From: a virus
Taxonomy: Duplodnaviria > Caudoviricetes
Reading direction: 5' to 3' (one strand)
Length of the DNA: 56,655 nucleotides
IMG/VR virus record: IMGVR_UViG_3300048033_000146
Span: 1 to 56,655 of that record
Part shown: piece after piece, positions 2,633 through 43,323 of the stretch
Position numbering within the stretch: the first letter of the stretch is position 1
Layout of the letters: every line of letters starts with the position of its first letter
The notes under the pieces: generated by a model
Told to the model about the DNA's origin: nothing
Seen by the model: only the letters and a program-made list of their open reading frames with translations
The model's database searches: none
Position numbers and translations under genes: made by a program

Positions 2633-3292
2633 TTAAACTTTTACCGCGTCAACGCATTCAACGTGATAGCGTGAAACAATATCGCCATTGTCTAGTGATT
2701 TGTTAGCACGATTACCCGCCACATAATCGCACCATGAATTCCACCAAAATGCAGATCCTTGAATTTGTGTCATCTTTACATAGTCGGCAATTTTAGCGCG
2801 ACGTGTTGCCGGTTTTACTTTGCCAAGCTTGACAGCGTTAGCAGATAGGCCAAGGCGTTTTAAATTATGACTATCGATACAAGCGACATTAAAGCCAAAC
2901 ATTTGCGCCACGAATGCAGCTTTAACCATACCAAGGTTTGGAACGTTCAAGAATAGTTCAATCGCTTCAACGCAGCCTTCAACGCTATCAAGGCCATAGG
3001 TCTGTTCAATATGTTTGATCTTGCCATATAGGAAACCGTCATGTGCCTTGGCATATTCAAGGCCATCACCTTTAAGACCCCACATAAAACGAGAGCTTGC
3101 GCCCAATTCGTTTACGTCATCAATCTGGCCTTTACATGTGGATAGACCCGCTTGAATTGTTGTCAGAACAAATAGCACGACTGGCACAACACTCTTTTTG
3201 TTGTCAGATATTGCGCGGATTGCATCAACGTCACGCTCATAAGAATTCAATGTGATCGCGTCATTGGTGATTGCGAATTTGGTGTTAGTCAT
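2633..3292 (-). CDS. HhH-GPD DNA glycosylase-like protein (OGG2/AGOG-like), first gene of the early arm
   Basis: FLNVPNLGMVKAAFVAQMFGFNVACIDSHNLKRLG resembles a helix-hairpin-helix plus catalytic Asp; start MTNT with AAGGA SD. Confidence 0.65.
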   Translation of the reverse strand: MTNTKFAITNDAITLNSYERDVDAIRAISDNKKSVVPVVLFVLTTIQAGLSTCKGQIDDVNELGASSRFMWGLKGDGLEYAKAHDGFLYGKIKHIEQTYGLDSVEGCVEAIELFLNVPNLGMVKAAFVAQMFGFNVACIDSHNLKRLGLSANAVKLGKVKPATRRAKIADYVKMTQIQGSAFWWNSWCDYVAGNRANKSLDNGDIVSRYHVECVDAVKV

Positions 3293-3538
3293 TTTGTGTA
3301 TCCTTATATTCAAGTTTTGGAATGTGGCGGTATCGTACCGCTCATCCCGATTAAGATATTATGTAGACGTATAAGTCATCAAAAAATTTGGTTTTGTAAC
3401 AATTCGTGATCGACATTCAAATAGTTGAATATGTTATTTATATTTATAATGTATATACACAGTTATGTTTCAGTAACGAAATGTTACAATGTGAAACAAA
3501 GCGTGAGCAAGGTGAATGCATTGGAACGATTGCATGAA

Positions 3539-3872: not shown

Positions 3873-4121
3873 AGTAGTAACTTTATGTTACAGTATGCTA
3901 CAATATGTGAAGATTTAGCATTTTATGGATTGACAGGGGGGTGTTTTTCCATATAACTGCGTAGCAGTAGCAGCCTGTAGTTATAACATTAAGTGTTTTA
4001 ACTCTCTAAATAAGTAATACATATAAGTAAAGTAGTAACTAATAAGAGTAGTAACTATTATTAGAGTGTTGTAAATGGATCAGTGGACATAGGAAAAGTT
4101 GTAACACTAGCAAAGTTGTAA
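3873..4121. repeat. AT-rich region with AGTAGTAACT x3 and GTTGTAA x3
   Basis: AGTAGTAACT at 3873, 4031, 4047; GTTGTAA near 4068, 4098, 4115. Confidence 0.8.
3930..3957 (+). promoter_or_regulatory. Sigma70-like promoter TTGACA-N16-TATAAC
   Basis: Direct motif; heads the plus arm. Confidence 0.7.
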
Positions 4122-4311: not shown

Positions 4312-4339
4312 TTGACAATGAATAATAATCGAATACAAC
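4312..4339 (+). promoter_or_regulatory. Promoter-like TTGACA-N16-TACAAC
   Basis: Same geometry as the other copies; overlaps the start of a CDS. Confidence 0.5.
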
Positions 4340-4578
4340 TATACGCATCAGATGACGTAATTGAAGAGTTTTACAAAGCTCTAGCTTCTGGTGACCCTAA
4401 CAGATTACACCGTGTACATATCCCTAAAAGTGATGTCTTTTATGTGAGATCAGCTATAGAAGCTGACACAGGAAAGCGATACACATTGGATCATGTAGAA
4501 CGTGCTATGTACCTTGAAGGTATGCTTGATAGAAAAGACGTGTTTGAACCTGACAGAGAACGTGATGGCGTAGGATGA
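4318..4578 (+). CDS. Hypothetical protein
   Basis: ORF track; start uncertain; ATGA-coupled to next gene. Confidence 0.7.
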   Translation: MNNNRIQLYASDDVIEEFYKALASGDPNRLHRVHIPKSDVFYVRSAIEADTGKRYTLDHVERAMYLEGMLDRKDVFEPDRERDGVG

Positions 4579-8876: not shown

Positions 8877-9035
8877 ATGAAAAGCTTTTTTCGTAAACTT
8901 TGGAAAGCAATCGAAGAGTCTCAGCAACGCCGCGCAGACTATTACTTACTACAGCAACTTACTGATCGTGAACTACGTGATCTGGGTATCGGGCGTTCAG
9001 AAATACGTTCAGCCATTTATAACCGTAACGATTAA
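8877..9035 (+). CDS. DUF1127 (YjiS-like) small protein, 52 aa (not in ORF track)
   Basis: MKSFFRKLWKAIEESQQRRADYYLLQQLTDRELRDLGIGRSEIRSAIYNRND; strong AAGGAG SD. Confidence 0.85.
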   Translation: MKSFFRKLWKAIEESQQRRADYYLLQQLTDRELRDLGIGRSEIRSAIYNRND

Positions 9036-9056
9036 TAGGGTTTTATAAAAAAGTGC

Positions 9057-9084
9057 TTGCATTTGCAATAGTTATACATAAAAC
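9057..9084 (+). promoter_or_regulatory. Promoter TTGCAT-N16-TAAAAC upstream of packaging genes
   Basis: Intergenic; matches the recurring motif; nested in inverted repeats. Confidence 0.6.
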
Positions 9085-9116
9085 TATATGCAAGCCCTAA
9101 AAACAAGGACGACTTT

Positions 9117-11370: not shown

Positions 11371-13485
11371 ATGGCAGAAAACGACGAATTAAACTTTGAT
11401 ACAGATGAAGTAGTTGCAGCAGAAGACACTGATGATAGCATTTTTGCTTCTAAGTCTAGCTTACTGACATTTGTTGGTGAACGCTTCAGACGTTCTGAGG
11501 ACGCAAGACGTTCAGACGAAGATCGTTGGTTACGTGCCTACCGCAACTATCGTGGCTTGTATGGCTCTGACGTACAGTTTACTGACAGCGAAAAGTCACG
11601 TGTATTTGTTAAGGTTACTAAGACTAAAACACTAGCAGCATACGGTCAGATCGTAGATGTACTATTTGGTAACAATAAGTTCCCTCTATCTGTAAACCCA
11701 TCAGTTTTGCCAGATGGTGTAGCAGAGTCAGTACACATCAACATTGACCCTAATGCTTCACAAGCTGGTGACGCACTAAAAGCTGTAACACGCAATCAAC
11801 CATCACGCCCTTACTTAATCGACGGTACAACAGAGTTGCAGCCGGGGGAAACCATGAACGACTTACGTAAGCGTTTAGGTCCACTAGCAGAAAAGATGGA
11901 TGCTGTATCTGAGAAGATTGTTGAGGGTGATGGCACTACTCAAACTACAGTAACATTCCATCCAGCTATGGTAGCTGCTAAAAAGATGGAAAAGAAAATT
12001 CACGATCAGCTACAAGAAAGTGGTGCATCTGTACACCTACGTTCTATGGCTTTCGAGATGGCTCTACTTGGCACAGGTGTCATGAAAGGTCCATTCGCTA
12101 CAGATAAGGAATACCCTAACTGGAATGAAGATGGTGAGTATGAGCCACTAATTAAGACAGTACCTGAGTGTAATCACGTATCTGTATGGAACTTTTATCC
12201 AGATCCAGAAGCTTCCTGTATGGAAGACGCAGAGTACGTAGTTGAGCGTCACAAGATGTCACGTACAGAACTACGTGCACTAAAGAACCGTCCATACTTT
12301 ATGGATGATGCTATTCAATATGCCATAGATAAAGGCCCAGACTACGTACAGAAACACTGGGAAATGACTATGGATGATGATCAGGCTACACCTACATCTG
12401 AACGTTGGGAAGTCCTAGAATTCTGGGGTTTTGTAGATACAGACATGCTTGAGGAACACGGTGTTAAGATTCCAAAAGAGCTAAAAAACCTAGACGAAGT
12501 AAACGCTAACGTATGGGTATGTAATGGTGAAGTACTACGTATGGTACTAAACCCATTTAAGCCTACACGTATTCCTTACTATGCTACCCCATATGAGCAT
12601 AACCCATACAGCTTCTTTGGTGTAGGTATTGCAGAGAACATGGATGATACGCAGACATTGATGAATGGCTTTATGCGTATGGCTATTGACAACGCTGCAC
12701 TGTCTGGTAACTTAATCATCGAAGTAGACGAAACTAACTTAGTACCAGGACAGGACTTATCTGTTTATCCCGGCAAAATCTTTCGTCGCCAAGGCGGTGC
12801 GCCGGGTCAAGCGATCTTCGGCACCAAGTTTCCGAATGTTGCACAAGAGAACATGCAACTCTTTGATAAGGCACGTGTATTAGCAGATGAAAGCACAGGA
12901 TTCCCTAGTTTTGCGCATGGTCAAACTGGTGTTAGTGGAGTTGGGCGTACTGCTAGTGGGATTAGTATGCTTATGTCTGCTGCTAATGGCTCTATACGGA
13001 CTGTTGTTAAAAATGTTGATGACTATCTTATCCGTCCATTAGGTCGCTCATTCTTTGCATTTAACATGCAGTTTGACTTCGATCCAGACATTCGTGGTGA
13101 CCTAGAAGTACACGCATCTGGTACAGAAAGCTTGATGGCTAACGAAGTACGTTCACAGCGTCTAATGCAATTCTTACAAGTAGCACAGAATCCAGTACTT
13201 GCACCATTCGCAAAAATGGATTATATTATACGTGAGATTGCAAAGTCTATGGATTTGGACCCAGACAAGGTTACCAACTCTATGCAAGACGCAGCTATCC
13301 AAGCCGAAATCCTAAAAGGGTTCCAAGCACCACAACCTGCACCAGCAGGACCAGAGGGTGTACCAGCCCCAGAAGGACAAGGACCACAAGCAGTAGCAGA
13401 TACATCTGGCGGTGGTGGCTCACAAGTAGGAGTGGGTACAGCACCTACACCAGGTGAGCAAGGATTCACAGGTAATGTCGCTTAA
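11371..13485 (+). CDS. Portal protein
   Basis: 704 aa after terL; WNFYPDP, GVG..ENMDDTQ, GRTASGISML. Confidence 0.9.
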   Translation: MAENDELNFDTDEVVAAEDTDDSIFASKSSLLTFVGERFRRSEDARRSDEDRWLRAYRNYRGLYGSDVQFTDSEKSRVFVKVTKTKTLAAYGQIVDVLFGNNKFPLSVNPSVLPDGVAESVHINIDPNASQAGDALKAVTRNQPSRPYLIDGTTELQPGETMNDLRKRLGPLAEKMDAVSEKIVEGDGTTQTTVTFHPAMVAAKKMEKKIHDQLQESGASVHLRSMAFEMALLGTGVMKGPFATDKEYPNWNEDGEYEPLIKTVPECNHVSVWNFYPDPEASCMEDAEYVVERHKMSRTELRALKNRPYFMDDAIQYAIDKGPDYVQKHWEMTMDDDQATPTSERWEVLEFWGFVDTDMLEEHGVKIPKELKNLDEVNANVWVCNGEVLRMVLNPFKPTRIPYYATPYEHNPYSFFGVGIAENMDDTQTLMNGFMRMAIDNAALSGNLIIEVDETNLVPGQDLSVYPGKIFRRQGGAPGQAIFGTKFPNVAQENMQLFDKARVLADESTGFPSFAHGQTGVSGVGRTASGISMLMSAANGSIRTVVKNVDDYLIRPLGRSFFAFNMQFDFDPDIRGDLEVHASGTESLMANEVRSQRLMQFLQVAQNPVLAPFAKMDYIIREIAKSMDLDPDKVTNSMQDAAIQAEILKGFQAPQPAPAGPEGVPAPEGQGPQAVADTSGGGGSQVGVGTAPTPGEQGFTGNVA

Positions 13486-13666: not shown

Positions 13667-16055
13667 CTATCGTAAGAGTCTAATGGATATGACACCTGAA
13701 GAAAGGGCAGAGGTTGCCCCGGGTGCTGTTATCTCAGATGATGTTGAAAAACCTCTGAGTGTCAAGGGTGCAGAATTTGGTCTATCTATGACACCAGTAG
13801 GTACAGCTATGGAGGTTGCAGAAGAGCTTTCTTCAGCTAGCCCAAGCTGGTTAAACATCGGTCTAGCTGTTGCGCCTGACTTATTAGGCCTTGGCCCTGT
13901 GGCTGACCCTCTTATGAAAGCTATAAAAGGCACAAAGTTTAAAACAGCTAAAGGATCTACATACGAAGTAACAGACAGTAATACTACTGTACGAAATAAA
14001 GCTGCAAGACCAGAACACCCCGGTGAATCAGGGGTTCAGCCCCAGTCTAAAAAGACTATTTATATGCCAAGAGAAGAACTAGAGAAGTTTGCTGGCATTC
14101 ACCAAAACCCTGATATCGGTACAGAGTTTATCCCAACAGGTGAGAACACTGCAGCGTTACGTTACACAGAAGACTACGGACCTCGCAAAGCAGGTGATAT
14201 CGTACCGGGTACTGAAATAACTTTTACCCTTGATCCTGAAGTAGGTCTAAACCCTGTAGAGATTCTTGACTTTAGAAACCCTAGAGGTATTCACTTTGGT
14301 AATGAAATTATCGAAGTAGAAAGTAACATTCCTAAAGTATCACGTAGTAAAGATGCTACTGATCCAGATGACCCTATGTTTGAATTTACAAGTAAAACGA
14401 CAGGGGTAACAAAAACTTTTAATGAGGGCGGTATGGCTATGGATAAACAAATGGACGCAGTATTCAAGTCTAGCCGTACTGGTTACGCTGAAGGTGGTGA
14501 AGTAGGCGAAGCACCAGACACAACCATCGGCTTAGACCCTGTGTCAGGTAATGAGGTGCCTATGGGTGCCACACCAGAAGAGGTACGTGACGATATCCCA
14601 GCGCAGTTGAGCGAAGGTGAATATGTTATTCCTGCAGATGTTGTACGTTTCTATGGTGTAAAATTCTTTGAGGGCTTACGTACTGAAGCCAAGCAAGGTT
14701 ACGCAGAGATGGATCAGAATGGTCGTATCGGCGGTGAACCAGTAGGCCAAGAAGATAGCGGTATGGAAATGGTAGAACCAGAGGATGACCTGCCGTTTGA
14801 CATTTCAGAGCTACAGATTATTGACGATGAAACAGGTATGTATGAAGGTGGCCTAGCAGGTTATGCAGAAGGTGGTTTACCAGCAGCACCAGCCACAACA
14901 CAAGTGCCTATGAATCCATTCAGCCCTACAGGTACTACTGCTGGTTTTGAAATAAAAGAATATGTGAATGATGCTGGTGAGGTTATGTACATTCAGTTTA
15001 TGAATGGTCAACCTATGACGTTTATTCCACAAGGGTTTAAACCTAAAGGCACAGCAGCAGAGCAAGCAGCAGAGCAAGCAGCTACAGGTGAAGGTGTAGC
15101 AGCAGAAGCAGCACCAACAGTATCTGTCAGTGGTAATGACTACGACTATGATACAGAGATGGGTAGAGTAGGCACAGAATTTACTGAAGGTGCAACAGCT
15201 AAAGACTGGACTAAAGCATCAGTGGATGACTTTTCTAGTGCTACAAAAGGTTTAGGCTCTGGTCTTGGAACTATGGCAGGTGCGTTAGTTGGTGGTCCTA
15301 TAGGCGCGGTTATTGGTATTGGCTCACAGGATGCTGCTAGAAAAAAAGCATATGATATGCTAGACGGTATTGCTTATCAGCTAGAAAGCGATAATCTAAC
15401 AGAGGGGCAAAAGTCAGACTTAATAACACAGAAACAACAAATACAGAAGTACCTTGAACCATCAAGTAGCGAAGGTAAATTTGGCTCTGGTATTGTAAAA
15501 GGTAGTGGTATCTTTGGTGGTGCAACTACTTTGTATGAAAACCTTGGAGATTACGGCGGTACTGTTGTAGATGGTGAAGTAGTGGGTGATGGAAAGCGTA
15601 CCTTTGCTGATACATGGCTAGGTGATTTACTTGGTGCAGATGGTAAAGCAGGTGTGCAAGGTCCGGGTCTTTCCGAATCACTTTCTGGTGCAAGACGCAC
15701 CGCTGTTAATGCGGATGGCACAGACGGTTGGGAAGACATGGGCGATGCTGAAAGAGCAGCAGCACGTATGGAGGCACGTGAAGCTACACCATATGAAAAA
15801 GCTTTGACAGAAGCCCAGAAACAAAAAGCTGAAGGTAATACAGAAGCTGCTAATAAAGAGTATGATAAAGCAATATCCACAGCTACAAACTCTTGGGTCG
15901 CAGCTACAAATGCGGTTAACGCATCGGGTAACGATCCTATAGCACGACATAACGCAATTATGGCGCAATCAGCAGCAAGTAGAGCAGCTACAAAAGCCAT
16001 CCAAGAAAAGAACAACCGTACAGGTTTCTTTGGTTTAAAAACTAAAGACGATTAA
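13659..16055 (+). CDS. Large putative internal virion protein with N-terminal globular cargo domain
   Basis: DDIPAQLSEGEYVIPADVV motif, repeated YAEGG, glycine-zipper segment. Confidence 0.7.
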   Translation: MADYRKSLMDMTPEERAEVAPGAVISDDVEKPLSVKGAEFGLSMTPVGTAMEVAEELSSASPSWLNIGLAVAPDLLGLGPVADPLMKAIKGTKFKTAKGSTYEVTDSNTTVRNKAARPEHPGESGVQPQSKKTIYMPREELEKFAGIHQNPDIGTEFIPTGENTAALRYTEDYGPRKAGDIVPGTEITFTLDPEVGLNPVEILDFRNPRGIHFGNEIIEVESNIPKVSRSKDATDPDDPMFEFTSKTTGVTKTFNEGGMAMDKQMDAVFKSSRTGYAEGGEVGEAPDTTIGLDPVSGNEVPMGATPEEVRDDIPAQLSEGEYVIPADVVRFYGVKFFEGLRTEAKQGYAEMDQNGRIGGEPVGQEDSGMEMVEPEDDLPFDISELQIIDDETGMYEGGLAGYAEGGLPAAPATTQVPMNPFSPTGTTAGFEIKEYVNDAGEVMYIQFMNGQPMTFIPQGFKPKGTAAEQAAEQAATGEGVAAEAAPTVSVSGNDYDYDTEMGRVGTEFTEGATAKDWTKASVDDFSSATKGLGSGLGTMAGALVGGPIGAVIGIGSQDAARKKAYDMLDGIAYQLESDNLTEGQKSDLITQKQQIQKYLEPSSSEGKFGSGIVKGSGIFGGATTLYENLGDYGGTVVDGEVVGDGKRTFADTWLGDLLGADGKAGVQGPGLSESLSGARRTAVNADGTDGWEDMGDAERAAARMEAREATPYEKALTEAQKQKAEGNTEAANKEYDKAISTATNSWVAATNAVNASGNDPIARHNAIMAQSAASRAATKAIQEKNNRTGFFGLKTKDD

Positions 16056-16087
16056 TAGTGATTGGTCCCGATCCTATAATAATATAA

Positions 16088-16114
16088 GGCTACCCGGTCA
16101 ATCTTGACTGGCCC
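16088..16114 (+). promoter_or_regulatory. Leader hairpin next to the scaffold SD
   Basis: CCGGTCA/TGACTGG stem flanked by GCTAC and CC. Confidence 0.55.
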
Positions 16115-16133
16115 CACATAAAGGAGTATAAAA

Positions 16134-17093
16134 ATGTCGGAAGCCCAACCAGTTGATATCAAAACAGAGGTTATCAACGCAGCACCTCATATGCGTAACC
16201 AAGCACGTATTGACGCAGATGAAGCAGAACTAGAAGCACTCAAAAAGCGTATGCGTGGCGAAGTCGATGAAACAGAAGAAGAAACCGACGATAGTGAACC
16301 CGATAGCCAAAGAGCTACGGACACCCAAGTACAGAATGAGAGTGTACCAAAACAAGAAGCTAAAGCAGAACCTGAGAGTGAAGCACAAGAAGAAGATTCT
16401 GGACTAACAGCAGAAGAGAAAACTTTCAAGCAGCGTTATGGTGATCTACGTCGCCACATGCAAGAGAAAGAAAAAGAGACTACAGCTAATCTTGAGAAGC
16501 TACAGCAGCAGCTAGAAGCCGCTACAAAGAATGAGCTTGTACTACCAAAGTCTGAAGAAGAGATTGATGCGTGGGCAAAGCAGTATCCTGATGTAGCAGG
16601 TATCATCGAAGCTATTGCTGATAAAAAAGCTACAGAACGTGCGTCTGAGCTAGATGGTCGCCTGAAACAGATTGAAGAGATGCGATCTATTGCACGTAAG
16701 GAAAAAGCTGAAGCAGAATTGTCTAGCTTACACCCTGACTTCGCAGAGCTTCGTGCAGATGATGCATTTCATGAGTGGGCTAAAGAACAGCCTAAAGTCG
16801 TACAAGACGCATTATATGATAATGTAGATGATGTTAAATCTGTAGCACGTGTACTAGACCTTTACAAATCAGATAAAGGAATTAAGACAAAGCGTGTAGC
16901 TACAGAGGACAAGAGCGCAGCTTCGTCTGTAAAAGCACGTAAAGCTGCACCTATTGATCCAGACGACTCTTCACGTTACTTGCGTGAATCACAAGTAGCT
17001 AAGATGTCTATTAAAGAATATGAGAAACGTGCTGAAGATATTATGGAAGCACAACGCTCAGGCAAGTTTATTTATGATGTGTCAAAAAGATAG
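16134..17093 (+). CDS. Capsid scaffolding protein
   Basis: Acidic, coiled-coil, FKQRYGDLRRH, HPDF; directly before the capsid gene. Confidence 0.8.
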   Translation: MSEAQPVDIKTEVINAAPHMRNQARIDADEAELEALKKRMRGEVDETEEETDDSEPDSQRATDTQVQNESVPKQEAKAEPESEAQEEDSGLTAEEKTFKQRYGDLRRHMQEKEKETTANLEKLQQQLEAATKNELVLPKSEEEIDAWAKQYPDVAGIIEAIADKKATERASELDGRLKQIEEMRSIARKEKAEAELSSLHPDFAELRADDAFHEWAKEQPKVVQDALYDNVDDVKSVARVLDLYKSDKGIKTKRVATEDKSAASSVKARKAAPIDPDDSSRYLRESQVAKMSIKEYEKRAEDIMEAQRSGKFIYDVSKR

Positions 17094-17121
17094 TTGACAA
17101 ACTTTATATCATAAGTAAAAC
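17094..17121 (+). promoter_or_regulatory. Capsid promoter TTGACA-N16-TAAAAC
   Basis: Direct motif right after the scaffold stop. Confidence 0.75.
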
Positions 17122-17124
17122 TAT

Positions 17125-17158
17125 AGCATATACACAACATAAAAGTGTGTATGCTTTT
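17125..17158 (+). terminator. Terminator-like hairpin overlapping the predicted capsid transcription start
   Basis: AGCATATACAC/GTGTGTATGCT 11-bp stem then TTT. Confidence 0.5.
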
Positions 17159-17164
17159 CACTAA

Positions 17165-17303
17165 GCACTAGCCACAACAAAGAACTACCTCAGAGTATAG
17201 GCCCAGCGCAGATAGGGCGGCCACCCTAGATGCAAAGCTGACTACCCTAATATGAAGAGCCTCTTTAGTGGATATGTAGTGTTAATCCTCACGCCATATC
17301 TAT
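17165..17303 (+). ncRNA. Structured 5' leader of the major capsid gene (candidate cis-regulatory RNA)
   Basis: Nested stems GCACTA/TAGTGT, CCAC/GTGG, AAAGA/TCTTT, CTC/GAG, TAGG/CCTA, CAGC/GCTG, TAGGG/CCCTA. Confidence 0.6.
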
Positions 17304-17316
17304 AAGGAGAAATATT

Positions 17317-18402
17317 ATGGCTATTGGTCTAAATGGTTCCTATTCAGGGACAGGCTTTGACGGTAACTGGTCCCCAGTAATCTATTCGAAGCAAGCACAG
17401 ATCGCTCTACGTAAAGCGGCTGTTGCAAACGCGATTACAAACAACTCTTACTTTGGTGAGATTGCTAACCAAGGTGACGTTGTTCGCATTCAAAAAGAGC
17501 CAGAAGTAACAGTCAACTCTTTGACACGTAAGGAAGCTATCAGTGTTCAAGATTTGAACGATGAAGACTTCTCTCTAGTGATTGACCAAGCAAACTACTT
17601 CGCATTCAAAATGGATGACATCGAAGACCAGTTCGCAAACGTTGACTATGTATCTTTGGCAGCAGATCGTGCAGCATATAAAATGGCTGACGCTATGGAT
17701 ACTGACGTTCTACGTTACTTGTCAGGTCATGACTCAGCAGGTGACTATGTATCAACCTCAGCAGGTGACGCACAGCACGACACAGCAGGAAACCTAACAG
17801 GTGAATACCTAACTGCTAACCACTTGTCTGCTACAGACTTTGGTCAGCTAGGTACAAACGATGGTGCAGATACACCTGTAGATTATACAGCAGGTGACTC
17901 TATTCCACTAGCACCACGTCTACCCGGTGCAACATCTTTGTCAGACACAACAGTATCACCATTGACTGTTATCGCACGTATGGCGCGCCGTATGGACGTA
18001 CAGAATGTTGATTCACGTGGTCGTTGGATCGTTGTAGACCCAGTATTCGTCGAAATGCTAAAAGACGAAGACAGCCGCGTATTGCAAGCTGACTGGGGTG
18101 GAACTGGCCTAATGAATGGCTTGGTATTGAACAACCTACACGGCTTCCGTGTTTATGTTTCAAACAACTTGCCAGCATCAGGTACAGGCGCAGGAACTTC
18201 AGGTACAGGCGCACAAGACACTAACTATGGTGTCGTTGTAGGTGGTCAGGACGAAGCAGTAGCTTCAGCGGAGCAAATCAACAAAGTTGAGAACTACCGT
18301 GACCCTGATTCATTCGCTGACATCGTGCGTGGTATGCACCTATACGGTCGTAAGATTCTACGTCCAGAAGCTCTAGTAACAGCACGTTACAACGCAGCTT
18401 AA
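17317..18402 (+). CDS. Major capsid protein
   Basis: GEIANQGDVVRI, LVIDQANYFAF, FADIVRGMHLYGRKILRPEAL; strong SD; downstream terminator. Confidence 0.92.
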   Translation: MAIGLNGSYSGTGFDGNWSPVIYSKQAQIALRKAAVANAITNNSYFGEIANQGDVVRIQKEPEVTVNSLTRKEAISVQDLNDEDFSLVIDQANYFAFKMDDIEDQFANVDYVSLAADRAAYKMADAMDTDVLRYLSGHDSAGDYVSTSAGDAQHDTAGNLTGEYLTANHLSATDFGQLGTNDGADTPVDYTAGDSIPLAPRLPGATSLSDTTVSPLTVIARMARRMDVQNVDSRGRWIVVDPVFVEMLKDEDSRVLQADWGGTGLMNGLVLNNLHGFRVYVSNNLPASGTGAGTSGTGAQDTNYGVVVGGQDEAVASAEQINKVENYRDPDSFADIVRGMHLYGRKILRPEALVTARYNAA

Positions 18403-43135: not shown

Positions 43136-43323
43136 TATGTTCCTTTCGGTACTTCAGAACAGTACGCTACTACGTAAGCTTCGGGGTTGGGGCGAGTAGC
43201 CATATGACTGTAGTACGTAGCCTCTGAATCTTTCTGACACTGCTTTAAGTCACGGTAGGGGAAACCTTCAGCATACGAGAACATACCTGCACCATCAATC
43301 AGCACGACTACTAGAACCCACAT
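43135..43323 (-). CDS. Small hypothetical protein
   Basis: MWVLVVVL...C...AYC. Confidence 0.6.
   Translation of the reverse strand: MWVLVVVLIDGAGMFSYAEGFPYRDLKQCQKDSEATYYSHMATRPNPEAYVVAYCSEVPKGT

Follow-up and report, generated by a model that had tools for sequence, protein, structure and literature searches.

A shared asymmetric internal loop in the scaffold and capsid leaders of HMO-2011-type phages suggests a putative head-assembly regulon

Why should the leaders of two neighboring phage head genes carry the same small RNA loop, and what might read it? We investigated this question in a 56,655-nt stretch of DNA (hereafter the window), which is the complete genome of an HMO-2011-type marine podophage; a passage in PMC9038755 describes phages of this type as a dominant and widely distributed marine group. 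A 319-amino-acid ORF (16134–17093, + strand), whose product is acidic and all-helical, lies between the portal-side genes and the gene for the major capsid protein (17317–18402, + strand; 361 amino acids; PHROG 267, major head protein, E = 1.3e-51). Counterparts of the capsid gene in relatives carry the annotation coat protein, and that of HMO-2011 is annotated as a P22-type coat. Judging from its position and composition, the 319-amino-acid ORF probably encodes a scaffold, and we refer to it as scaffold-like; the protein belongs to PHROG 13678, a family annotated as "unknown function", and its Pfam and PHROG matches name no scaffold family. Within the 223-nt gap between the two genes lie a strong predicted promoter of the sigma-70 type and a structured leader of ~190 nt. 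An initial annotation had proposed that one asymmetric loop recurs in the scaffold and capsid leaders, and that a scaffold, capsid or DUF1127 protein binds it; all the strings and coordinates that it quoted are present in the sequence.

The scaffold leader of the window contains one copy of the loop (type I). A consensus scan placed a promoter-like site of putative function (TTAATA-N17-TATAAT) at 16052–16080 (+ strand). The hairpin spans 16088–16115 (+ strand) and consists of GG, CUAC (16090–16093), a 7-bp stem with an AUCU loop, CC (16112–16113) and a final CC; the Shine-Dalgarno (SD) sequence AAGGAG of the scaffold-like gene (16121–16126, + strand) follows 5 nt after it. The loop had been described as 5x2, and while its recurrence just before the SD stands, it is better parsed as 4x2, that is GG(CUAC)...(CC)CC. 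Among type I leaders of 69 distinct relatives, in which the lower stem has 2 bp and the upper stem 5–7 bp, 98.4% of cells were paired, and 47 cells showed double changes versus 9.1 in shuffles (none of 500 shuffles reached 47). All six upper-stem pairs showed such double changes, and the closing pair was C-G in 53 of the 69 leaders and U-A in the other 16. No alternative fold was predicted for the scaffold element. Upstream, only a -10-like TATAAC/ATAAC and a TAT directly before AAGG were conserved at the promoter-like site in relatives; the SD was conserved as ...CCCCAACAUAAGGAG in the alignment of scaffold leaders. A covariance model (R1) of 46 type I hairpins, run on the window with filters off, had a sole credible match at 16086–16117 (35.6 bits, E = 6e-8). 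A second match at 43187–43203 (− strand; 15.1 bits, E = 0.062) was taken as chance because it appears to lie where an ORF ends and the next gene, coupled to it, follows, and the scan found no third regulated gene in the window genome.

Scaffold leaders of a second kind (type II; 66 of 200, in the HMO-2011 and CRP-1 groups) contain two loop copies in perfect dyad, 5–6 bp apart, within an element of ~45 nt. Their outer helix is a covarying 4-bp CUGG/CCAG, UUGG/CCAA or CUAG/CUAG, and the central helix occurred in 13 sequence variants. Phage HTVC033P keeps the scaffold element with CA replacing CC, and has a gap of only 31 nt before its capsid gene.

The capsid leader is larger, and its order is a 5′ hairpin (P1), a long twin-loop hairpin (P2), a third hairpin (P3) and the ribosome-binding site. 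Its predicted promoter (17094–17121, + strand) has the -35 element TTGACA (17094–17099), a 16-nt spacer and the -10 element TAAAAC (17116–17121). The pattern TTGAC[AT]-N15-18-TA[ACT]AA[CT] was found in 190 of 192 distinct leaders, with a 16-nt spacer in 182, and sites resembling it lie near 9079 and 4334 in the window. From sequence, this site probably functions as the capsid promoter, and the transcription starts of both leaders are likewise predicted. P1 (17126–17154, + strand), a 10-bp hairpin downstream of the conserved promoter, is at or close to the 5′ end predicted for the capsid mRNA. In 51 relatives, 98.4% of its cells were paired and four of ten pairs showed double changes, and RNAalifold predicted P1 as well. 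The UUUU that follows P1 in the window could suit an intrinsic terminator (17126–17158), but the site was absent from the consensus-scan terminator list; relatives have GCUUAUA or GCUUA at this place, with no U tract in the HMO group. A conserved linker (17165–17178, + strand) comes next, the CCAC of which (17172–17175) can pair with GUGG (17268–17271) as a helix, PL, that would enclose P2. By eye, PL has counterparts in other groups (GCAAAC/GUUUGC or CUAAAC/GUUUAG), and CCAC/GUGG is partly kept in the group of the window, where several rows with CCAC against UUGG break one pair. A pairing between GCACUA of the linker and UAGUGU of the P3 loop was considered and rejected, as it fails in the L007 group when the alignment is inspected by eye.

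P2 (17179–17266, + strand) contains two loops in a dyad arrangement: in loop A, ACUAC (17184–17188) lies opposite CC (17260–17261), and in loop B, CC (17202–17203) lies opposite ACUAC (17241–17245). The flanking helices are AAAGA/UCUUU (17179–17183 with 17262–17266), CUC/GAG, UAGG/CCUA (17198–17201 with 17246–17249) and CAGC/GCUG; together with an apical part of tandem G.A and a CGGCCA loop, P2 totals ~27 pairs. P3 (17270–17301, + strand) is formed by GGAUAUG/CAUAUCU with an inner GUGU/ACGC; 94.1% of its cells were paired in the 51 relatives, where its changes were one-sided only. By sequence and by the alignment of capsid leaders, the SD region of the capsid gene is UAAGGAG (17303–17309, + strand).

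To assess these folds we used relatives from three IMG/VR protein scans, each of which gave at least ~600 matching stretches, with the best 80 per scan taken. Across 51 capsid leaders, 93.2% of cells were paired, compared with 26–54% in slid controls, and 129 double-change cells were counted versus 41.4 in shuffles, none of 500 reaching 129. A strict twin-loop detector recognized 144 of 192 distinct capsid leaders versus 17 of 960 shuffles, and the spacing between the twin loops was 13–15 nt in 138 of the 144. The helices flanking the two capsid loops occurred in 24, 36, 30 and 45 sequence variants around fixed loops. The claim that stems differ while loops are conserved is therefore borne out by helix covariation in the 51 capsid, the 69 type I and the type II leaders. 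Owing to G.U pairs in the helices of both leaders, the fold is specific to the sense strand. RNAalifold on the 51 relatives returned P2 with both loops, in agreement with the fold proposed at the outset, whereas the single-sequence minimum free energy (MFE) structure lacks its closing helix. A loose loop descriptor matched the whole window 29 times on the + strand (21–46 in 30 Markov shuffles) and 56 times on the − strand (33–63); the support is comparative rather than single-sequence, since this descriptor stays at shuffle background in the window genome, and these counts rule it out as a definition of the regulon. The sharing of the loop is nonetheless real and far above chance. In metatranscriptome contigs from four runs (15900–17500), which pool relatives, may include DNA and reveal neither starts nor levels, summed depth was higher over the leader and capsid gene than over the scaffold gene.

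What the leaders have in common is a small asymmetric internal loop with a long strand of 3–5 nt that ends in AC (canonically CUAC) and a short strand of CC. A C-G or U-A closing pair follows AC, the helices can be of any sequence, and the loops often occur as two-fold-related pairs. The description of the loop as identical in both leaders holds for the group of the window, where all three copies agree in CUAC, the C-G closing pair and CC; outside this group, capsid loops are UUAC or CAC while scaffold loops remain CUAC. Across the whole family, the shared core comes down to ...AC facing CC together with the closing pair, and the conserved core amounts to only ~6–8 letters per site. A third copy, again the canonical CUAC/CC, lies in P1 of 28 of 33 CRP-1-like capsid leaders, and copies occupy up to five places per genome. 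The element is present in phages of SAR116, Roseobacter and SAR11 hosts and in a freshwater phage, and is very common in nature, given that each protein scan gave at least ~600 matching stretches.

The element does not correspond to a described family in Rfam 15, which had no match at gathering threshold over the whole window; at E ≤ 10 over 15950–17400, only snoZ17, SNORA30 and STnc410 appeared, each well short of threshold and located away from the elements. We found no description of it in the literature on HMO-2011-type phages and on phage capsid leader RNAs, and the terms promoter, intergenic, secondary structure and DUF1127 do not occur in an ISME J paper on HMO-2011-type phages. The element may already be contained in a 2023 viral structured-RNA catalogue (PMC10690425; 8,495 unnamed candidates). 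When the exact type II pattern was sought in bacterial genomes, one true element was recognized among the 80 loci listed of at least 120 matching stretches. These 80 loci, mostly high-GC actinomycete DNA, yielded 143 parses, two of which had a complementary central helix: one was a coding tandem repeat and the other lay in a phage-like 62.8-kb contig of a MAG. No host gene carrying a type II element was seen among the 80 loci listed.

Next, we considered how the capsid element might bear on translation. CUCUUUA (17261–17267, + strand) shares letters with the 3′ strand of the P2 closing helix, and as an anti-SD it has the alternative of pairing with the SD. In the single-sequence MFE structure it does so (−61.2 versus −56.2 kcal/mol for the P2-closed form), and the SD-closed form is hence predicted to be 5 kcal/mol more stable; anti-SD pairing and the P2 closing helix are mutually exclusive. 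For SD/anti-SD pairing, the mean predicted probability reached 0.85 across 46 leaders from the group of the window, as opposed to 0.43 and 0.05 in the other two groups. Anti-SD control as a family-wide rule is unsupported by the predicted probabilities in the HMO-2011 group.

We favor, at a probability of roughly one half, the reading that the two leaders are cis-regulatory and share a modular element that is recognized by a trans-acting RNA-binding protein, most likely phage-encoded, with the scaffold-like protein foremost. The element would be a modular protein-binding operator that controls translation of both the scaffold and the capsid mRNAs. On the scaffold mRNA, the element lies at the predicted 5′ end with the SD 5 nt downstream, and a protein bound there would keep the 30S subunit from entering; this would amount to autogenous repression of scaffold, comparable to that reported for P22. 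In the window's group, the protein would clamp the twin-loop hairpin of the capsid mRNA and so keep the anti-SD from the SD, whereby translation would open. That a protein binds, which protein it is and the sign of the regulation are all suppositions here. Consistent with an operator, a structured element adjoins or overlaps the ribosome-binding site in both leaders (5 nt away in scaffold; through the anti-SD strand in capsid), and the change in copy number from one to three per leader counts in favor of a protein site because such change is usual for these. A head-assembly regulon is, on this evidence, plausible, if putative. Several observations speak against the operator reading: in other groups the loops of the capsid leader (UUAC or CAC) do not match the scaffold CUAC, strong predicted SD/anti-SD pairing is confined to the window's group, and HTVC033P keeps the scaffold element yet has a 31-nt capsid gap. 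Moreover, one rigid dimer cannot bind both leaders alike because the loops are 5–6 bp apart in type II and 13–16 nt apart in the capsid leader.

The scaffold-like and the capsid proteins are both possible binders of the loop, the former being the foremost candidate. Its gene always adjoins the leader elements, and scaffold-like proteins share an invariant basic stretch, F-K-x-R-Y-x-D-L-R-R-H, found in five of five reference phages, among them HTVC033P and a freshwater phage. Its AF2 model (pLDDT 74) is all-helical, and the apparent lack of a known RNA-binding fold in this model counts against it as the binder; a fold search of the model against the PDB gave eight matches, all with E ≥ 3.6 and none at E ≤ 0.001. 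We regard as tentative, and on balance doubtful, the fuller proposal that the scaffold-like protein, through its basic stretch, would read the two-fold CUAC/CC module in one to three copies, repress itself and open capsid translation, with the state of assembly setting the ratio. DUF1127 (43 amino acids), the third binder suggested by the initial annotation, is disfavored: PF06568 was detected in only seven of 11 complete or near-complete motif-bearing genomes and is absent from the other four, namely HMO-2011, HTVC033P, MW202701 and the record of L150.

The binder might instead be a host factor, such as a conserved RNA-binding protein, a protein of the ribosome, or a ribonuclease (for example RNase III or RNase E), that would read the loops and process or stabilize both late mRNAs; we consider this unlikely. 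The dyad arrangement would suit dimeric enzymes, both elements start at predicted 5′ ends, where decay is decided, and the element spans phages whose alphaproteobacterial hosts differ widely (SAR116, Roseobacter and SAR11) as well as a freshwater phage. RNase III sites of T7 have a common internal loop between differing stems. An RNase III site takes about two turns of dsRNA plus an internal loop, for which capsid P2 is long enough, but the type I hairpin, with a lower stem of only 2 bp, is too short. The absence of a type II element from host genes among the 80 bacterial loci listed, of at least 120 stretches, also weighs against a host factor.

No partner would be needed if a C-loop-like motif bent or twisted the helix and the 5′ structure protected the mRNA or presented the ribosome-binding site on its own. 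Both leaders do begin with a stable structure, and C-loops, according to a passage in PMC9516175, are asymmetric loops in hairpins that often begin with C. A generic stabilizer, however, has no need of invariant unpaired letters in up to five places per genome, and no covarying tertiary partner was found, the linker/P3-loop pairing failing in the L007 group; we judge such an RNA-only role to be quite unlikely.

A riboswitch or ion sensor, with the asymmetric loop or loop pair as its pocket, is improbable. Its unpaired letters are strongly conserved, closing-helix and anti-SD pairings are mutually exclusive in the window's group, and some riboswitches have two-fold symmetric sites. Against this, the core comprises only ~6–8 letters at each site, its copies vary in number and spacing, no alternative fold is predicted for the scaffold element, and the logic of an expression platform is not conserved across groups (0.85 versus 0.43 and 0.05). 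That two independent structured leaders merely happen to share a loop would fit the background-level counts of the loose descriptor and the divergence of the loops outside the window's group, but is highly improbable given the identity of CUAC, the C-G closing pair and CC in all three window-group copies, the return of canonical CUAC/CC in P1 of CRP-1-like capsid leaders and the dyad design common to both leaders.

Collectively, our results describe a strongly covarying RNA family without an Rfam model, in which a tiny asymmetric loop behaves as a movable module, often in perfect dyad. Should the fuller proposal for the scaffold-like protein be true, the module, previously undescribed, would become the first RNA operator to be defined for the autoregulation of a scaffold. 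If a phage protein reads the module, the operator behind feedback linking capsid assembly with translation would be defined and a small protein-RNA recognition pair added, while an RNA-only or ligand-binding module would be a new recurrent structural motif. Cultured hosts and phages (the CRP phages and HMO-2011) exist for tests.

Several known systems resemble the element in part. In the bulge-helix-bulge of archaeal intron splicing, pure bulges of 3 nt surround a 4-bp helix, and a symmetric enzyme reads and cleaves them. Type II likewise has loops on opposite strands that flank a 5–6-bp helix with pseudo two-fold symmetry, but its loops are 4x2, it belongs to a virus of bacteria and it is not known to be cleaved. 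In the E. coli thrS operator, two similar modules beside the SD are bound by the subunits of a dimer, blocking the ribosome. The phage leaders also place two similar recognition modules next to an SD; the thrS modules mimic tRNA anticodon arms, whereas no mimicry is evident in the phage element. Like the C-loop, the phage element is an asymmetric internal loop in a hairpin with a long strand that is often C-first, as in the scaffold CUAC/CC and the HMO-group capsid CAC/CC; the capsid loops of the window begin with A (ACUAC). By the definition given in part of PMC9516175, two long-strand bases of a C-loop pair non-Watson-Crick with the flanking pairs to form two base triples, and the same text describes a C-loop as a protein site, for VIRP1 on PSTVd. 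The phage element may be C-loop-like by its sequence, but its short strand has two unpaired C.

Among phage operators, the T4 gp32 pseudoknot (mentioned in a passage of PMC10690425), the T4 RegA sites and the MS2 and PP7 coat hairpins are also small structures beside the SD of a phage gene, and, as with RegA, one protein may control several mRNAs. The window element differs from these in that it is an internal 4–5x2 loop rather than a hairpin loop, a bulged A or a pseudoknot, and in that elements of its type can form dyad pairs and number one to three per leader. A further parallel is offered by P22, whose gene order (portal side, scaffold, coat) is that of the window phage. According to work by King and Casjens in the 1970s–80s, the P22 scaffold reportedly limits its own synthesis, and to our knowledge this autoregulation has been known for decades without an identified RNA site. 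The N-terminus of the P22 scaffold is implicated in translational autoregulation in a section of a preprint (bioRxiv 10.1101/2022.12.13.520362). Whereas no RNA operator is known to have been defined for P22, the window phage has a defined RNA element, which is a putative operator.

Spanning 56,655 bp and bearing direct terminal repeats, the window is a complete virus record. The named relatives nearest to it by DNA are the Roseobacter phages CRP-603, CRP-207 and CRP-2 and, next, Puniceispirillum phage HMO-2011, which makes it an HMO-2011-type podophage. All genes surrounding the two leaders lie on the + strand: the portal gene (11371-13485; SU10_portal, PHROG portal/adaptor), a 798-aa ORF without a family match, an acidic 319-aa ORF (16134-17093; PHROG 13678, unknown function), which we call scaffold-like solely on the basis of its position and composition, and the major capsid gene (17317-18402; PHROG 267).

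The loop and helix strings quoted in the initial annotation were all present where they had been placed. Folded singly, the 223-nt gap preceding the capsid gene reached -57 kcal/mol (z = -3.85), and 0/200 shuffles were equally stable. In this fold, however, CUCUUUA (the anti-SD, 17261-17267) paired with the Shine-Dalgarno sequence (SD), not with AAAGA as in the proposed twin-loop hairpin (P2, 17179-17266). The scaffold-leader hairpin folded alone was of unremarkable stability (z = 0.10), and a loose descriptor of the loop matched across the window genome at background frequency. One sequence was therefore insufficient to decide.

An IMG/VR search with the capsid protein supplied the best 80 of at least ~600 matching stretches as loci; with CRP-603 and the window, these formed a first leader set, of which 76 sequences allowed both gene borders to be assigned (gap of 193-257 nt, 52 distinct versions). 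When the structure derived from the window was scored on a standard MAFFT alignment of 51 capsid leaders, 93.2% of cells were paired and 16 pairs showed double changes. Double-change cells numbered 129, compared with 41.4 in shuffles (0/500 reached 129), and control pairs slid by 1-3 columns gave only 26-54% pairing. Covariation extended over P1 (the 5' hairpin of the leader, 17126-17154), the apical helices and every helix flanking both loops; the closing helix AAAGA/UCUUU was invariant within the window's group. RNAalifold, run without a supplied structure, recovered P1, the closing helix, both asymmetric loops and the apical stem. The relatives thus bear out the proposed closing helix and loops; the single-sequence fold lacks that helix.

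Searches with the CRP-1 and HMO-2011 capsids yielded 160 further loci (best 80 of at least ~600 stretches each), for a total of 192 distinct leaders. A strict detector, which demanded an outer loop with its long strand 5' enclosing an inner loop with its long strand 3', long strands ending in AC, short strands of CC and helices no shorter than 3 bp, found the twin-loop design in 144/192 leaders versus 17/960 shuffles. Several of the 48 misses, inspected by eye, had a 2-bp helix, HMO-2011 itself among them. Long strands seen in capsid leaders included ACUAC, UUAC, CUUAC, ACCAC and CAC, the four helices flanking the loops occurred in 24, 36, 30 and 45 variants, and loop spacing on the 5' strand was 13-15 nt in 138 of the 144. 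Between groups, the closing helix changed in a compensated manner (AAAGA/UCUUU, CGGA/UCUG, AUAAGA/UCUUAU).

Scaffold leaders fell into two types. Among 200 loci with a proposable scaffold-like start, 109 carried type I (one loop copy) and 66 type II (two copies in dyad); of the 25 unclassified, the script had picked an internal start in 22, a type I element was otherwise visible in two, and one was HTVC033P. Type I, the window's type, reads GG[CUAC]-stem-loop-stem-[CC]CC, then ~5 nt, then the SD. Across 69 distinct sequences, 98.4% of cells were paired, all six upper-stem pairs showed double changes (47 double-change cells against 9.1 in shuffles, 0/500), GG/CC was invariant, and the pair adjoining the loop was C-G in 53 and U-A in 16. 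The earlier observation that stems vary while loops are kept thus holds for both capsid and type I leaders.

Type II reads (N)NGG[CUAC]H[CC]CC-loop-GG[CUAC]H'[CC]CC(N)N, and 53/53 distinct sequences parse in this way. The central helix (13 variants) is fully complementary between H and H' in 45 of these, and the outer 4-bp helix covaries (CUGG/CCAG 22, UUGG/CCAA 14, AUGG/CCAU 4, CUAG/CUAG 3). Read strand by strand, each half is GG[CUAC]helix / helix[CC]CC, a perfect two-fold arrangement. Because both halves read so, the scaffold loop is 4x2; the initial annotation was correct that the two leaders share a loop, but not in drawing the scaffold copy as 5x2. G.U pairs are frequent in the helices of both leaders, and the fold therefore belongs to the sense RNA.

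Two reference phages depart from the usual layout. Pelagibacter phage HTVC033P (locus 2899-2972) has a scaffold-leader variant, GAG[CUAC]...[CA]CUC, with CA replacing CC; merely 31 nt (3900-3930) separate its scaffold-like and capsid genes, leaving no capsid leader. In the freshwater phage MW202701 (locus 2642-3441), an HNH endonuclease ORF, possibly a mobile gene that entered the leader, lies between the two genes, with a TTGACA/TATAAC promoter upstream. The gap upstream of its capsid gene is only 116 nt and still contains CAGCCUCUG.

P1 of CRP-1-like capsid leaders bears an additional CC/CUAC loop near its tip (28/33 of the group, CRP-1 included; 38/124 capsid leaders overall), exemplified by a 10-bp stem, [CC], two pairs, a small loop, two pairs, [CUAC] and stem. 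The relaxed detector used here also fired in 64/620 shuffles, those matches having short helices and true copies long outer ones. Given this further copy, a phage carries three (window) to five (CRP-1) loop copies, every one on the scaffold and capsid leaders, and the motif is modular and movable. Searched with a covariance model built on type I hairpins, the window gave no other copy. A weak 15.1-bit match to this model at 43187-43203 on the - strand (GGCUAC...CCCCAA; another GGCUAC stands 30 nt upstream) was judged a chance hit since it apparently lies in the end of an ORF that overlaps the start codon of the following one. In a limited scan of bacterial genomes (80 loci of at least 120 matching stretches), type II was found only on a phage-like MAG contig. 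On this 62.8-kb Neomarinimicrobiota contig, a genuine type II element precedes a scaffold-like ORF (37% identity over 87 aa); the contig probably belongs to a phage and was binned into the bacterial MAG.

TTGAC[AT], a 15-18-nt spacer and TA[ACT]AA[CT] were present in 190/192 distinct capsid leaders, with a 16-nt spacer in 182. A common layout (TTGACA or TTGCAT, 16-nt spacer, TA(A/C)AAC, then TATA) recurs in the window at 17094-17125, 9050-9088 and 4313-4343 (+), and these sites are probably the phage's strong host-type promoters. P1 and its UUUU look like a terminator in the window; since the U tract is not kept in relatives and the conserved promoter lies directly upstream, we read P1 instead as a putative 5'-terminal stem-loop. 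Metatranscriptome contigs, which cannot show transcript starts or levels, cover the capsid leader. Over 17088-17500, in two estuary runs from different studies, summed depth rose from ~20 on the scaffold gene to several hundred across the leader and capsid gene; these depths add up the contigs of relatives and do not measure expression.

The scaffold element adjoins the SD, and a factor bound there would exclude the 30S subunit. For the capsid leader of the window's group, two exclusive forms were predicted, SD-closed (-61.2 kcal/mol) versus P2-closed (-56.2 kcal/mol), with a mean predicted SD/anti-SD pairing probability of 0.85 over 46 leaders. In this group, the SD would be released by a factor that adds more than ~5 kcal/mol to the stability of the twin-loop hairpin. 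The predicted pairing falls to 0.43 in the CRP-1 group, and at 0.05 it is absent from the HMO-2011 group; hence, we infer the sign of capsid-mRNA regulation for the window's group only.

A head-assembly regulon is a reasonable candidate interpretation on this sequence evidence, and we give a protein operator a probability of about 0.5. The scaffold, capsid or DUF1127 protein had been proposed as the binder. The 43-aa DUF1127 protein (8877-9008, +; PF06568, 30.2 bits) is an unusual small host-like protein for phage cargo, and a promoter-like site near 9079 lies directly 3' of its ORF. The family member CcaF1 is an RNA-binding protein (PMC8034643). Nevertheless, among 11 related complete or near-complete motif-bearing genomes, DUF1127 was found in seven and was absent from four (the complete HMO-2011, HTVC033P and MW202701, and one 97%-complete IMG/VR genome), which argues against it as the binder. 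The scaffold-like gene was adjacent in every case, and its product takes about half of the share given to a protein operator. Its structural model (pLDDT 74) is all-helical with disordered acidic stretches and had no PDB fold match. Residues 98-108 (16425-16457 region), where a long predicted helix begins, form an invariant basic and aromatic segment, F-K-x-R-Y-x-D-L-R-R-H; kept in 5/5 reference phages, this segment is better conserved than any other part of the protein, which is otherwise acidic. These features are suggestive only. The differing spacing of paired loops (5-6 bp in scaffold type II versus 13-16 nt in capsid leaders) disfavours a single rigid dimer binding both leaders alike. 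Recognition by a host factor or ribonuclease is unlikely, and a module of RNA alone somewhat more so; a riboswitch seems improbable. Coincidence we consider the least credible.

Rfam contains no family that matches the element. Promoters, RNA structure and intergenic regions go unmentioned in the paper on the CRP and HTVC phages. From IMG/VR, 8,495 unnamed structured-RNA candidates were predicted in a 2023 catalogue, whose main text features those upstream of GP20 and GP32 genes (PMC10690425); its supplements may already include these elements. Collectively, the relatives bear out and widen the initial observation: the leaders form a widespread RNA family outside the present Rfam models, built on a movable, often dyad-paired asymmetric loop of scaffold and capsid leaders.
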